Shown: positions 4,149 to 8,036 of the stretch, piece after piece
How positions within the stretch are numbered: the stretch's first letter is position 1
Layout of the letters: the number at the start of each line of letters is the position of its first letter
From: a phage
DNA: 46,874 nucleotides
Sequence record: PZ445467.1
Strand: one strand, 5' to 3'
The notes under the pieces: generated by a model
What the model was told of the DNA's origin: nothing
Databases searched by the model: none
Seen by the model: the letters and a program-made list of their open reading frames with translations, nothing else
Translations under genes and position numbers: made by a program

Positions 4149-5082
4149 CGCAAGACTTCCGCAGCCGCGCATATCGCAGAGCCTGACCGACCCGTTAGGC
4201 GCTGCAACCCGCATGTCGAAGATGGACAAGGTGATAACGCGCAAATATAAGCAACTCAGGACTCGTGCGCTTGAGTTGTTTCGCACCATTCCGCATAGTC
4301 AGACTAACGCAGAATCAAGCGGTCTGTATTTCTATGATTTCAGTAGTGCGCGCGCCGCTACTTTCATGGATGAGTTGCAGGCGCTGATTGACGAGATTCT
4401 GCTGGAAGGTGACGACTTCAGTCACGGCAGGATGTGGGCCAATGTGTTCATCGGTGATGCGTATCAGGCAGGAACGCAGAAGGCCAACTCTGAACTATCA
4501 AGCCTGTCTCCGGTTTATGCCGAGCAAAGGCCTATTGCCGCGATACTCTACAGTGAGCCATATCTGAATCGGCTGCGGCTTGCGTATACAGCTGGTTACT
4601 CGGACTGGCGAGGATTGAGTGATTACTCACGCCAACAACTGGCATCCGTCATTATGGAAGGCATTGCCCGTGGTGCCAATCCTCGAGATGTTGAGGCTGA
4701 TATTGTTAAGCGTGTTGACGTGTCACATAGTTACGCGAAGCAGATAGCGCAGACTGAAATCACCGGAACGCTGCGGCAGGCTAACAGGAGAGAAGTCATT
4801 GAGGCTCGCGAGGAATTAGGTATTGAAACGGTGATGCTGTGGCAATCGGCATTATTGCCTGGTCGAACGAGATTTACTCACGCGGCACGGCACGGGCGGT
4901 TTTACGCGCCAGAGGAGATTGACACGTTCTATAGCGAGAATGGCAATAGATATAATTGCCACTGTGCACAAGTACCAACATTGATAATGGATGGCAAGCC
5001 AGTCATTCTTGAGTCGTCGCAGGAAAGGCTTGATAAGCAGCGTGAAGCGTGGCAATCAGCCAATAAAAAGCCCTCTAAGTGA
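4129..5082 (+). CDS. head morphogenesis protein (Mu F / SPP1 gp7-like)
   Basis: ORF overlapping portal 3' end; ATG 4129 has GGAAG 6 nt upstream (alternative ATG 4123 or 4213); position and size fit MuF-like minor head protein. Confidence 0.6.
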
Positions 5083-5217: not shown

Positions 5218-5826
5218 TTAATCATCAAGTTTCACGCCGGGAATTTTGCCTGCTGCGATGGCTTCATAAATTAGCTTAGCCTCATCCTCGCGCTTGTAAT
5301 CTTGCGCTACCATTTCTAATACCGCGCAGATAGATTCAAGTACAGCCTCATGCTTCCTTTCTGCTTCTGTGCGAAATGGGATGAAAACATCCTTATTGGA
5401 TGGGGTTATTGCGTAGTAAATCTCACCAGATGGTCTGATAACTATTTTTTCGCCATCAAGACCAATAACCTTGACTTTTCCCCATGACGTTCCGTTGCTG
5501 ATATACTCACATTCACACCCAACTGGCGGCAGTCCTTCTCCGTTCCATGCTGAATTTTTCGATGCTGCGAGTGCTGCTTTGTATTGCCAATAGGTTACTA
5601 TCGACTCCTTATGGTCGGAAGATAATTGCGTAGCCCATTCTTCTCCATACCAGAAATGCACAAGGCTATTTCCTGTGTGATGTTTCCATGAGAACCCATC
5701 ATAGTGTGGGTCATTTGTGTCCCATGCGCACAGCGAACCGTCATTATCTTGAGTAATTGACAGCGCGTTTTGAGGCCACCAACCACGCTTAGGCAATTCT
5801 TGAACTAACAGGTCGATAAGTTTCAT
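5218..5826 (-). CDS. hypothetical protein (202 aa)
   Basis: ATG preceded by GGAGAA; last gene of a four-gene leftward block. Confidence 0.55.
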   Translation of the reverse strand: MKLIDLLVQELPKRGWWPQNALSITQDNDGSLCAWDTNDPHYDGFSWKHHTGNSLVHFWYGEEWATQLSSDHKESIVTYWQYKAALAASKNSAWNGEGLPPVGCECEYISNGTSWGKVKVIGLDGEKIVIRPSGEIYYAITPSNKDVFIPFRTEAERKHEAVLESICAVLEMVAQDYKREDEAKLIYEAIAAGKIPGVKLDD

Positions 5827-5838
5827 TTTTGTTCTCCG

Positions 5839-6054
5839 TTAATAATTTGGCTTTACGTCTTTCATTGTTAGTGGCTTCCATCCACTTGCGATTGCAATAT
5901 CAATACAATCCTCAAGCGTTTCAGCTTTTATTGGCTCACCAACTTCACTATCATCAAATTTTCTCTGTATTTGATAGCCATCTACGACATAAAGAATCTC
6001 TACAGAACCATGTAGTGTGTGCATCGACTCAAGCCATTGCAGGTGGTAGCTCAT
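5839..6054 (-). CDS. hypothetical protein (71 aa)
   Basis: ATG start; ATGA overlap with upstream gene stop. Confidence 0.45.
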   Translation of the reverse strand: MSYHLQWLESMHTLHGSVEILYVVDGYQIQRKFDDSEVGEPIKAETLEDCIDIAIASGWKPLTMKDVKPNY

Positions 6055-6320
6055 TTTGTTCCCCCTAATGCCTTATTAACCGCAGCACGCGCATTATCTA
6101 GAGCGCGGCGCTTACTTGATGTTGTCCAGACTTTGCCGGAGTGGTCGTCGTAGATTTCCAGTAGTTGCTGGAGTGCTGATAGCATGGCCTTGTTATTATC
6201 GTGGCAATACCCAACAGAAAAGCCATGCCATAATTCATCCTTTTCTCTATCGGTCATGTCGCCAAACCCAACCGAATCAAACCATTCAATAAATAATTGG
6301 TACACTTCGCGTTGCGTCAT
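6051..6320 (-). CDS. hypothetical protein (89 aa)
   Basis: ATG at 6320 preceded by GAGG; track ORF extends to a GTG at 6332. Confidence 0.5.
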   Translation of the reverse strand: MTQREVYQLFIEWFDSVGFGDMTDREKDELWHGFSVGYCHDNNKAMLSALQQLLEIYDDHSGKVWTTSSKRRALDNARAAVNKALGGTK

Positions 6321-6328
6321 TATCAACC

Positions 6329-6490
6329 TCACTTAATATATTCAATAATCTCAACTTCACGCATCTGCACCAGACTAAATGGCGCAACCACTTTGCCGCA
6401 TGGGCGGATTTTGATTTGCTCAAGGCCGAACATTCCGCAGCGTCCGTTTTCTTTGAATTTGACCATTACCATAATTTCTTCCTCACTCAT
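6329..6490 (-). CDS. hypothetical small protein (53 aa)
   Basis: ORF MSEEEIMVMVKFKENGRCGMF...; no clear SD; below ORF-track cutoff. Confidence 0.3.
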   Translation of the reverse strand: MSEEEIMVMVKFKENGRCGMFGLEQIKIRPCGKVVAPFSLVQMREVEIIEYIK

Positions 6491-6577
6491 CGTTTGATGT
6501 AGATACTATGCACCACCACTCAATCTACGTCAATAGCCATTGTGATAGAATTAATCATTATTTGAACAGGAGGCAGA
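6491..6577. promoter_or_regulatory. divergent promoter region with two copies of the ATCTAC motif
   Basis: motif at 6521-6533 (+) and inverted copy at 6496-6506; TGTGATAGAAT -10-like at 6541-6551; AGGAGG SD before ATG 6578. Confidence 0.5.
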
Positions 6578-6856
6578 ATGAAACTATCGCAACGCGGCAT
6601 GGAGGTGTTTGGAATTACCGATGCCGTAGATATATCGCCTTACATCACCACTGAGACAACACAGAATCAGTTTGATGCGCTGACAAGCCTTGCCACCGAC
6701 ATCGGCATTGACTCGTTCCGCAAATCAACGCTTCTGAAGAAACACAATCTCCGCTGCTTCTCATGTGTCGTCGCGCATTTCATCGTGTGGGGTGAGAAGA
6801 CTGGCGACAAAGCAAAATGCAAGGCTGAAAAAGAGGTTTACTGGTATGGCTATTAG
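6578..6856 (+). pseudogene. 5'-truncated GH24 (T4/P22 gp19-type) lysozyme remnant, 92 aa
   Basis: QNQFDALTSL...IGIDSFRKSTLLKKHNL resembles the C-terminal half of P22-type lysozymes; N-terminal catalytic region absent; intact SD and ATG. Confidence 0.45.
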
Positions 6857-7310
6857 CAAAAACATGAAGGCGTTTCTGGATATGCTGGCGTACAGCGAGG
6901 GCACTGATAACGGGCGGCAGAAAACCAATAATCATGGTTATGATGTGATTGTTGGCGGCTCACTGTTTACCGACTATTCCGATCACCCGCGCAAGCTGAT
7001 TAGCCTGCCTAAGCTGGGCATCAAATCCACTGCCGCCGGGCGCTATCAGGTGCTGGCTAAATTTTATGATGCGTACAAAAAGCAACTGCGCCTGCCTGAC
7101 TTCTCCCCCGCGTCACAGGACGCTATCGCAATGCAACTAATCCGTGAATGCAAAGCCACCGCCGATATTGAGACTGGTCGCATTGCTGATGCTATCCATA
7201 AATGCCGCTCCCGCTGGGCTTCATTACCGGGCGCTGGCTATGGTCAGCATGAGCAGAAGCTGGATAAGTTGATTCAGGTATACAAAGAGGCTGGCGGAGC
7301 TGTGGCATGA
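6846..7310 (+). CDS. endolysin, lambda R-type lytic transglycosylase
   Basis: 154 aa; FLDMLAYSEGTDNGRQKT.NHGYDVIVGG.LFTDYSDHPR and WASLPGAGYGQ closely match lambda R; GAGG SD. Confidence 0.9.
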   Translation: MAISKNMKAFLDMLAYSEGTDNGRQKTNNHGYDVIVGGSLFTDYSDHPRKLISLPKLGIKSTAAGRYQVLAKFYDAYKKQLRLPDFSPASQDAIAMQLIRECKATADIETGRIADAIHKCRSRWASLPGAGYGQHEQKLDKLIQVYKEAGGAVA

Positions 7311-7546
7311 AAAAGCTAAGCAACTGGCTGCTCGGCGCGTGGATTTCATTCTGCTCACTATTGCAGCTATGGCCTGATGCAATGATGCACGTGTGGGTAA
7401 TGATGCCGGACGACCTGAAAGCGGCGCTACCGCCAATCGTGGTCAAAGGTGTAAGCTACTCCATCATGCTGGTTGGTATTCTCGGAAAAATGCACGGCAT
7501 GAGGAAGGAGAACCGGAGGCTGCGCAATGATGTCAATTCTCGCTAA
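7307..7546 (+). CDS. small membrane protein with two hydrophobic segments and basic C-terminus (holin/antiholin candidate)
   Basis: ATGA overlap with endolysin stop, GGAG SD; sits between endolysin and spanins. Confidence 0.4.
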   Translation: MKKLSNWLLGAWISFCSLLQLWPDAMMHVWVMMPDDLKAALPPIVVKGVSYSIMLVGILGKMHGMRKENRRLRNDVNSR

Positions 7547-8018
7547 ATACTGGCGACCACTGGCAATTATTATAATTGTTGTCTCTGGCGCGTTGTGGGC
7601 GCGTAGCGAAATCATCAGCTACGGCGACCAACGATACGCAGAAGGCAAATCCCAAGCAATCGCCGAACAGAAGGCCGCAGACGAACAAGAGGAGCAACGA
7701 CGCAATGCAGAACTGCAAAAGATTCAGGCTGACGCACAGCAAAGGATTGACGCTGCGCGCAATGATGCTGTCAATGCTGCTGCTAAGTCTGGCAGGTTGC
7801 AGCAACAGCTCGCAAATATCCGCAAGCAGCTCGTCGGATATTCCACCGCTGAGTCCATTGGCAATCCAGCCGCAGAAACCGGAGTTTTGCTTGGAGACGT
7901 GCTCGGCAAATCTGTCGAAAGAAATCGACAACTGGCAGATTATGCTGACAGGGCAAGAGAGGCAGGATTAGCGTGTGAGGCGCAGTATAATTCGCTGCGT
8001 AATAAAAAAGCCCCGTGA
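7527..8018 (+). CDS. Rz: i-spanin (Rz-like)
   Basis: N-terminal TM segment then Ala/Gln-rich coiled-coil region; GGAGG SD; follows endolysin. Confidence 0.65.
   Translation: MMSILAKYWRPLAIIIIVVSGALWARSEIISYGDQRYAEGKSQAIAEQKAADEQEEQRRNAELQKIQADAQQRIDAARNDAVNAAAKSGRLQQQLANIRKQLVGYSTAESIGNPAAETGVLLGDVLGKSVERNRQLADYADRAREAGLACEAQYNSLRNKKAP
7762..7971 (+). CDS. Rz1: o-spanin (Rz1-like lipoprotein) embedded in +1 frame of Rz
   Basis: MMLSMLLLSLAGC lipobox signal, Pro/Ser-rich 69 aa, wholly inside Rz. Confidence 0.55.
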   Translation: MMLSMLLLSLAGCSNSSQISASSSSDIPPLSPLAIQPQKPEFCLETCSANLSKEIDNWQIMLTGQERQD

Positions 8019-8036
8019 TGGGGCTTGTGTTTAATT
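8003..8036. terminator. bidirectional rho-independent terminator
   Basis: stem AAGCCCC/GGGGCTT flanked by A-run and T-rich tract between convergent genes. Confidence 0.6.

Follow-up and report, generated by a model that had tools for sequence, protein, structure and literature searches.

The lysis region of PZ445467.1, a phage DNA of 46,874 nucleotides (nt; the window), begins with a short open reading frame (ORF) of 92 codons, followed immediately by a gene for an endolysin of the lambda R type (R). The window represents a Skatevirus genome: between positions 5000 and 8200, its identity is 99.1% with Escherichia phage SandraMuster_Bas78 and 82-94% with many Skate-related siphophages that infect Salmonella, Escherichia or Shigella. 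Humolli et al. (PMC11990801) assign Bas77-81 to Skatevirus or its close vicinity and use Roufvirus as the outgroup. A first-pass annotation of the window, made from the letters alone, described the ORF as the remnant of a GH24 lysozyme that had lost its catalytic N-terminus through insertion or recombination of the neighbouring leftward gene block. Here we describe the origin, the predicted fold and the conservation of this short gene, referred to below as the half-lysozyme gene. The features at the core of the locus are as follows.

6491..6577, no strand assigned: divergent intergenic control region of the lysis operon, 87 bp, about 95% identical to its counterpart in phage HC6, which precedes an intact GH24 gene
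6568..6573, plus strand: strong Shine-Dalgarno sequence AGGAGG of the half-lysozyme gene, read from the sequence and identical in the relatives with a full-length GH24 gene
6578..6856, plus strand: half-lysozyme gene, 92 amino acids (aa), identified by Pfam, PDB and PHROG matches, alignment to syntenic GH24 enzymes, AlphaFold2 and Foldseek; helix-A stub with the deletion junction in codons 1-18, GH24 C-terminal lobe in codons 19-92
6831..6856, plus strand: junction of the half-lysozyme and R genes, with the R ribosome-binding site AAGAGG at 6831-6836, the R start at 6846 and an 11-nt overlap of the two ORFs
6846..7310, plus strand: complete gene for a lambda R-type (GH104) lytic transglycosylase, 154 aa (phmmer; PHROG 90 endolysin)

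Half of a GH24 lysozyme in the slot of an intact one

The 92-aa protein matched the Pfam family Phage_lysozyme (PF00959) with 40.4 bits (gathering threshold 22.3; E = 4.5e-10), the match being confined to residues 19-78, which correspond to positions 55-114 of the 125 in the profile. Against solved GH24 lysozymes the E-values ranged from 5e-9 (6ET6) to 4e-6 (P22 lysozyme 2ANV), always with the C-terminal part of the enzyme. PHROG 10457, a stand-alone family of about 95 residues labelled 'endolysin', was matched along its full length (residues 1-90 against profile positions 1-95 of 95, E = 1.6e-39). The R protein was aligned with PDB 3D3D/1AM7 over residues 3-153 (phmmer E = 4.3e-62), its catalytic-Glu motif YSEGTDNG being aligned to WSEGTDNG. 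Since the Pfam, PDB and R matches lie far beyond chance, the sequence facts noted in the first-pass annotation are real: the ORF keeps the GH24 C-terminal region, the 87 bp upstream of it form a divergent intergenic region, and a complete lambda R homologue starts at 6846 within its 3' end.

An intact GH24 gene of 144-149 aa was found in the same slot, without an R gene, in Escherichia phage HC6, Citrobacter phage K1M, Klebsiella phage VLCpiS13e and Aeromonas phage pIS4-A (Roufvirus). In all four relatives, the slot is bordered by a leftward block of the same kind on one side and by the same holin on the other. The synteny comparison suggested in the first-pass annotation thus yielded relatives with an intact lysozyme at exactly this position, in agreement with its proposal that the ORF derives from a GH24 lysozyme once present there. 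HC6 and the window share 97% amino-acid identity in the holin, 94% in the head-morphogenesis protein and 86% in the spanin, a distance comparable to those among Skate-like phages, and the relatives carrying the intact GH24 gene have otherwise about 90% identical lysis modules. Over about 100 nt ahead of the gene, in its ribosome-binding site and in codons 1-7 (MKLSQRG), the window and HC6 are nearly identical; the promoter region, the ribosome-binding site and the MKLSQRG start are common to the window and all four syntenic relatives.

In alignments of both protein and DNA, the 92-aa protein corresponds to a full-length GH24 enzyme from whose interior a block of about 50-54 codons has been removed in frame. 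The block starts between residues 12 and 19 of the HC6 enzyme and ends near residue 68, and five further codons (VMNGL) are lost near the C-terminus. The deleted block holds Glu15, Asp24 and Thr33 (HC6 numbering), which by motif alignment are the equivalents of Glu11, Asp20 and Thr26 of T4 lysozyme, the HC6 motif being aligned to the T4 sequence FEGFELRAYPDPATGGAPWTAGYGH. The column of Glu15, which is Glu in 100% of 29 full-length homologues, has no counterpart in the short protein, whose nearest residue, at position 15, varies between D, N and E. Of the N-terminal stretch of about 50 residues that the first-pass annotation had regarded as missing, the catalytic Glu/Asp region is indeed absent, whereas the N-terminus itself (MKLSQRG) is present and the loss is internal and in frame. 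When a hidden Markov model (HMM) of 51 full-length GH24 enzymes was searched against the six-frame translation of the window, only the 92-aa ORF was detected (E = 1e-22; next E = 0.12). No N-terminal lobe is encoded elsewhere in the window, and the missing part was, as had been stated, not simply frameshifted away. As to the origin of the deletion, HC6 has the sequence TTYGAGG twice, at FEG (codons 14-16) and at FED (codons 65-67), and an event at this microhomology is plausible. The R gene is inserted exactly between the stop codon of the lysozyme gene and the start codon of the holin gene.

For the mapping of surface against core, columns conserved in at least 70% of the full-length GH24 enzymes were used as a stand-in. 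The short family retains 20 of 29 such columns, mostly of the core (QFDA, SL, IG, F, S-LL, N, F, W, R and E), and six are lost. In all short forms, the invariant Asn of the YNxG motif is changed to D, S or A and its Tyr to T or A. Judged from this conservation pattern, the fold is kept and the surface of the old cleft is rewritten.

One motif of the C-terminal lobe, KHNxxCxxC (window 6743-6768; His56, Cys60 and Cys63), stands where GH24 enzymes usually have K-L-N-x-G-D-Y-x-G-A and, in the comparison with the 29 full-length enzymes, was common only to the short proteins and the syntenic intact enzymes. The same columns are also seen in the relatives L004-L006 and L045. His56, Cys60 and Cys63 could form a redox or metal site, or a disulfide that arises once the protein is released to the periplasm. 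Another cysteine, at codon 81 (6818-6820; KAKCKA), is found in the window where every other aligned copy has Arg, the column being 97% Arg in full-length GH24 enzymes (the RR of GLxxRR); Cys81 is a substitution private to the window phage.

The AlphaFold2 model of the 92-aa protein (pLDDT 95.1, pTM 0.87, from a 21-sequence alignment) consists of helices at residues 5-11, 29-42, 44-48, 51-57, 61-75 and 78-90, without strands and without a beta-hairpin. Foldseek placed the model on the C-terminal lobes of the GH24 enzymes PHAb11, AcLys (6ET6), P22 (2ANV) and R21 (3HDE), with 1.4-2 A rmsd over 72-81 columns. TMq rose from about 0.71 to 0.83 in the sole alignment that spans the whole target (7M5I), consistent with a match of the N-terminal helix. 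Compared with solved structures, the model represents a single helical lobe rather than the two-lobe GH24 fold (TMt 0.35-0.49), and an independent BFVD model of the homologue from KFS-SE2 superposes on it at TM 0.98. In T4 lysozyme, residues 13-74 form the N-terminal subdomain, while residues 75-164 together with helix A (1-12) form the C-terminal subdomain, which folds autonomously (bioRxiv 10.1101/353649). The half-lysozyme is predicted by the model to fold as this discontinuous C-terminal subdomain, in which helix A joins the C-terminal lobe. What the natural deletion has taken away is thus almost exactly the N-terminal subdomain, and what it has left is the unit that folds by itself.

Selection, allele classes and linkage to R

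Selection was analysed on 37 copies of the gene, the window plus 36 more (33 from IMG/VR contigs and three from annotated phages). Every copy has a length of 279 nt, with no gap, internal stop or frameshift, and 36 of the 37 differ from one another in nucleotide sequence. The ratio of non-synonymous to synonymous substitution rates (dN/dS, NG86) was 0.116 overall (at dS 0.35), 0.075 for codons 19-78 (with dS about 0.42) and 0.35 for the N-terminal 18 codons. Parsimony on a neighbour-joining tree gave 287 synonymous against 118 non-synonymous changes (omega 0.115; binomial p = 4.5e-98 against neutrality). For the intact GH24 gene, HC6 against K1M, dN/dS was 0.108 (0.094 for helix A plus the C-terminal lobe), indicating that the half-protein is constrained as strongly as the working enzyme; for the R gene it was 0.035. 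A pseudogene is expected to show disabling mutations and a dN/dS of about 1, yet none of the 37 copies carries a stop or frameshift. Codons 8 and 10 (6599-6601 and 6605-6607), within helix A, are hypervariable (19 non-synonymous and 5 synonymous changes at codon 8, 14 and 6 at codon 10); unlike the invariant first seven residues, they change at about the rate expected under neutrality. The frameshifted or chimeric-looking database proteins P0029, P0033 (on L043, which has many broken genes) and P0030 (on a 583-bp contig) come from fragmented or error-prone assemblies and do not represent natural pseudogenes.

Homologues were searched for among 5.8 billion and 1.84 billion proteins. Beside class 1, two further allele classes of the same architecture were identified: class 2, of 93-96 aa and 49-54% identity (P0035, P0036, P0038, P0041 and Tbat1_6), and class 3, represented by P0042 (98 aa, 47% identity over 62 aligned residues). 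All three classes carry KHNxxCxxC and a C-terminal YxYGY, and form a single clade. Class-2 alleles are present in the Skate-like contigs L040-L042, beside an R that is 95% identical to that of the window, and a class-2 allele followed by R is also present in the Roufvirus-like Flyfo siphovirus Tbat1_6 (holin 68% and R 85% identical). This distribution indicates that the deletion is old and that the short gene has been exchanged as a unit.

Among the lysozyme-like representatives of about 100 aa from the search of 1.84 billion proteins, only P0041 and P0042 are true members of the family. Most of the others, which had been considered as relatives, start inside helix B or C and keep YNxG, and thus look like gene fragments. 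P0066, P0059 and P0134 are separate oddities. Together with BFVD A0A6J5L3F0, these short metagenome proteins (80-119 aa; P0066 at L046 120-425) also look shortened. P0066 and P0134 lack the N-terminal lobe and keep a helix-A-like start, and in P0066 and P0059 the YNxG motif is replaced by DIGID, the same change as in the Skate family, which may be convergent or reflect a distant relationship. The DIGID change in these two proteins is a hint that the exaptation of a free C-terminal lobe, considered below, may have taken place more than once. P0066 is a singleton; its contig measures 2.8 kb, and the genes next to it are uninformative.

In the phage collection, R (at least 80% identity) was present in 142 records and the short form of the lysozyme gene in 142; no record with an intact GH24 gene together with R, or with R alone, was encountered. 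In the phage records examined, the half-lysozyme gene, which is the first cistron of the lysis operon, was never found without R. The R start is fixed at +268 from the upstream start in both of the allele classes compared. The RNA around the R ribosome-binding site is less structured than shuffled controls (z = +2.26), so that the ORF is not obviously needed to unmask this site. The R protein, being complete and strongly constrained, is taken as the muralytic enzyme of the operon, and the view of the first-pass annotation that lysis was taken over by the R-type enzyme fits the presence of a complete R gene, whose product most plausibly cleaves murein. One record with the Skate-type half-lysozyme and R, OR544125.1 (Acinetobacter phage vB_AbaM_AB4P2, 45,680 bp), is labelled as a myovirus and has a Skate-like genome size; KX523699 (IME207) is listed alongside it. 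AB4P2 may be mislabelled as to host or morphotype; alternatively, the group may infect a wider range of hosts than thought.

Possible roles of the half-lysozyme

We consider it probable that ORF 6578-6856 is a domesticated, non-catalytic half-lysozyme kept by selection, as suggested by the sequence comparisons and the predicted fold. For the structural and evolutionary part of this explanation our confidence is high. In the ancestral operon of this phage group, the order was promoter, GH24 endolysin, holin and spanins. In one lineage, an in-frame deletion took out the N-terminal lobe with Glu15, Asp24 and Thr33, leaving the promoter, the ribosome-binding site, the start codon, helix A, the C-terminal lobe and the stop codon, and an R-type transglycosylase gene now occupies the place between the lysozyme stop and the holin start. 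Murein would then be cleaved by R, and the half-lysozyme, translated first from the same late transcript, would act without catalysis; it might be released together with R by way of the holin lesion, or its target might be the envelope or the lysis machinery. Its action would probably depend on the re-modelled surface, because the residues of the ancestral substrate cleft have been replaced. A non-catalytic accessory role is favoured because a canonical muramidase is excluded, no N-terminal lobe exists elsewhere in the window and the potential for a frameshift fusion to R is not conserved. That the half-lysozyme is specifically an accessory factor of lysis is a tentative proposal, to which we give somewhat less than an even chance. 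The narrower version, in which the free C-terminal lobe was exapted on the arrival of the second endolysin as a non-enzymatic factor for the timing or efficiency of lysis, binding murein, murein precursors or the lysis machinery, is doubtful.

Several observations weigh against the explanation as a domesticated, non-catalytic half-lysozyme. Ancestral-type binding of peptidoglycan is doubtful, since the sugar-contact residues of the cleft are lost and variable. A class-2 allele of 53% identity adjoins an R of 95% identity, which argues against a tightly co-evolving partnership with R. The purifying selection could in part reflect avoidance of a toxic, misfolded product of an obligately translated ORF. 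The 142-record counts are inflated by many near-identical 'seszw' records and do not represent independent events. The endpoints of the deletion are ambiguous in the alignments after divergence. Two of the five AlphaFold models are confident (95.1 and 93.9, the rest being 77.6, 69.8 and 57.8), and the alignment of 21 sequences is shallow.

Among the alternatives, the one that survives best regards the product as functionless and the ORF as the relic of a leader, kept for its promoter-proximal translation start and for the R ribosome-binding site and start at its 3' end, so that the only constraint on the protein would be the need for a harmless, well-folded by-product. The geometry agrees with this view, the R ribosome-binding site and start lying within the last 26 nt of the ORF at the fixed +268 distance in both classes, and codons 84-90 show zero non-synonymous and almost no synonymous change, as expected under constraint at the DNA level. 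A benign product is also plausible, because the fold is the autonomously folding unit of lysozyme. The strongest constraint, however, is found at codons 19-78 (dN/dS 0.075), far from the R start, where synonymous sites are free to change, and it equals that on the intact enzyme. The unusually unstructured R ribosome-binding site does not obviously require upstream translation, and a simple deletion would put R right behind the promoter, an arrangement found in none of the 142 records. The short form, moreover, has persisted through divergence to about 50% identity. The explanation by a leader ORF is thus unlikely.

An appointment outside lysis, such as anti-host-defence, competitor interference or host manipulation, with the gene merely riding on the late lysis transcript, appears less likely still. 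It would account for the swapping of the short gene alone between deep classes in near-identical backgrounds and behind the same promoter (53% identity, against 95% for R), such swapping being common for genes in conflict, as well as for the rewritten surface that once faced the substrate; the co-option of a GH24 domain in SpmX, detected here as a weak NCBIfam match, provides a precedent. Against such a role are the strict linkage to R and the position as first cistron of the lysis operon, since the time of lysis is a poor moment for the expression of an anti-defence function. Class 1 is under purifying rather than diversifying selection, save for the unconstrained codons 8, 10, 46 and 76, and the searches of Pfam, PHROG and NCBIfam (PADLOC was not searched) gave no library matches beyond lysozyme families.

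An active muramidase serving as a second endolysin, as implied by the labels 'endolysin', 'lysozyme' and 'has Ex5Dx8T motif' in GenBank and Pharokka annotations and by the name 'lysin2' in phage swi2, is very improbable. LysWL59 and LysWL60 of phage LPST10, both of which are reportedly characterised as endolysins in work of Liu et al. in 2019 as related in reviews, belong to this context in so far as one of them may be the 92-aa protein; as far as the reviews relate, only LysWL59 of the pair is said to have been pursued. The swi2 homologue was examined as a trigger-factor fusion of 62 kDa, its truncation being unnoticed, and was reported to kill about 1 log of E. coli BL21, whether it acted from within or from without the cells and irrespective of EDTA (0.01<P<0.05), while the R homologue of the same phage, 'lysin1', had a modest antibacterial effect (Sui et al. 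2021, PMC8185280). The effect of 'lysin2', the sole evidence for muramidase activity that was found, is however small and independent of permeabilisation, and was obtained with a 52-kDa-tagged fusion without a catalytic-mutant control. The entire N-terminal lobe with the canonical Glu-Asp-Thr is deleted, the invariant Asn and Tyr on the C-lobe side of the cleft are replaced, and the model lacks the beta-hairpin. The E-x5-D-x8-T pattern noted in the GenBank record of Skate was considered as a catalytic motif and rejected, because its alleged residues E9, D15 and T24 are not conserved across the family (E, D or K at position 9; D, N or E at 15; T, S, R or A at 24). The genome paper of Skate names only the transglycosylase as endolysin (PMC6606912).

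The model of the first-pass annotation, a decaying, N-terminally truncated pseudogene that arose when the leftward block (5218-6490) entered the 5' part of the lysozyme gene by insertion or recombination, can be set aside with near certainty: the catalytic region is absent and the mosaic leftward block abuts the intergenic region, but the N-terminus, the start, the ribosome-binding site and about 100 nt upstream are shared with intact-lysozyme relatives that have a leftward block too, and the lesion is an internal, in-frame deletion, with no stop or frameshift in 37 copies and a dN/dS of 0.12. Disruption by the leftward block is refuted by this conservation of the intergenic region and the first codons. 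Nor is the ORF a remnant in decay: the first-pass annotation had itself stated that a conserved stand-alone family would speak against its model, and PHROG 10457 is such a family, on which purifying selection acts as strongly as on the intact enzyme.

Three further arrangements were considered, two of which were rejected. A programmed frameshift that fuses the half-lysozyme to R does not agree with the R frame, which is open upstream over a variable 7-111 codons and is closed by stops within 10 codons in two genomes, so that no fusion potential is conserved. A lysozyme split over two genes was discarded after the six-frame HMM search of the window, which found no N-terminal lobe. A hairpin that hides the R ribosome-binding site and is opened by upstream translation is not supported, because the region folds worse than shuffled controls.

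We regard the half-lysozyme as a pseudoenzyme, or domesticated domain, born of an in-place replacement of the endolysin. This finding calls for a correction of annotation, because about 140 phage records label the gene 'endolysin' or 'lysozyme' though the catalytic half is missing, and the claim of 'two functional lysins' in at least one paper is built on a half-lysozyme gene. A description of the truncated family as such was not found in the literature, where its members are annotated merely as 'endolysin' or 'lysozyme'. The replacement of an endolysin is caught here within one operon, the GH24 enzyme being displaced by a lambda R-type enzyme and the ancestral and derived cassettes circulating in near-identical phages. 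Since selection holds the displaced gene as firmly as the intact enzyme, the conserved lobe implies a non-catalytic function, the biology of which may be modest. The function is directly testable, as Bas77, Bas78 and Skate are cultured on E. coli K-12 (with restored O16 antigen) and Salmonella LT2.

The surrounding operon and comparison with known systems

The remaining features of the control region and of the lysis operon are listed below.

6520-6533, within the intergenic region: invariant 14-nt motif TCAATCTACGTCAA, from the comparison of upstream regions
6543-6551, plus strand: extended -10-like sequence TGATAGAAT, read by eye and not flagged in the consensus scan
6533..6505, minus strand: leftward promoter-like site (consensus scan)
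7307..7546, plus strand: holin, 79 aa, DUF7940 (Pfam PF25612; PHROG 13249 holin, E = 3e-52)
7527..8018, plus strand: i-spanin, Rz-like, DUF2514 (Pfam PF10721, E = 1.7e-30; PHROG 312)
7705..7971, plus strand: o-spanin with lipobox LAGC, nested in the +1 frame of the i-spanin gene (translation; position of the annotated Skate O-spanin)
8008..8026, no strand assigned: bidirectional terminator-like hairpin at the end of the lysis operon (consensus scan, both strands; the Skate terminator is annotated there)

The motif TCAATCTACGTCAA is unchanged from Skate-like phages to Roufvirus pIS4-A while its flanks diverge, and is also present upstream of the gene in L004, L005, L006 and L040. Located at a -35-like position 5' of TGATAGAAT, it may bind a phage late regulator. 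The stop of R and the start of the holin gene overlap in the sequence ATGA. Between the holin and i-spanin genes, L003 (3127-3276), L041 (4950-5120) and L045 (3017-3178) have one more ORF, of about 50-56 aa, that the window lacks; it represents a second insertion-deletion polymorphism within the lysis cassette. The leftward block (5218-6490, minus strand), between the head-morphogenesis gene and the lysis operon, is strongly mosaic; the number and content of its genes vary among otherwise close relatives (L001-L006 and L040-L045). Its genes are all small hypotheticals (PHROGs 7798, 1273 and 21280), and in some relatives the block includes DUF7448, Phage_P22_Y8K6 or an N-antiterminator-like protein.

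The closest counterparts of the half-lysozyme are the syntenic GH24 enzymes of HC6, K1M, VLCpiS13e and pIS4-A, with which it shares the slot, the promoter region, the ribosome-binding site, the first seven residues, about 46-52% identity in the C-terminal lobe, KHNxxCxxC and the core QFDAL-SL-IG-F-STLL-N-F-W-E. It differs from them in the absence of the N-terminal lobe of about 50-54 residues and of the GL of GLxxRR, in the replacement of the cleft Tyr-Asn, in its length (92 aa against about 146) and in its constant association with a second, unrelated endolysin.

The C-terminal fragment of T4 lysozyme that was engineered in the Marqusee laboratory, with residues 75-164 joined to helix A (1-12), folds autonomously, and the half-lysozyme is predicted to form the same compact domain. 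In contrast to the T4 fragment, the half-lysozyme is natural, has helix A in its native N-terminal position and belongs to the P22-like branch of GH24. Selection has refined it as well, as in the replacement of residues that became exposed where the two lobes once met.

The nearest precedent for domestication is SpmX, a localisation factor of Caulobacterales in which a GH24 domain is kept for a role other than lysis, and which gave weak matches here (NCBIfam; PDB 6h9d). In SpmX, a bacterial protein anchored in the membrane, both lobes of the domain are retained, whereas in the present case half of the domain is deleted and the gene still resides in a phage lysis operon. The half-lysozyme scored 23.9 bits against the NCBIfam LysLocSpmX equivalog, the cut-off of which is 700, and thus falls outside that family.

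The R protein of the window resembles lambda R in its nearly full-length alignment (3-153 of 154), with about 67% identity by tblastn, in the catalytic-Glu motif and in being soluble, without a signal-anchor. It nevertheless forms a clade of its own, the nearest homologues outside this phage group being 70% (rV5-like phages) and 67% (lambdoid phages) identical. In contrast to that of lambda, the R gene of this group is located upstream rather than downstream from the holin gene and is always preceded by the half-lysozyme gene.

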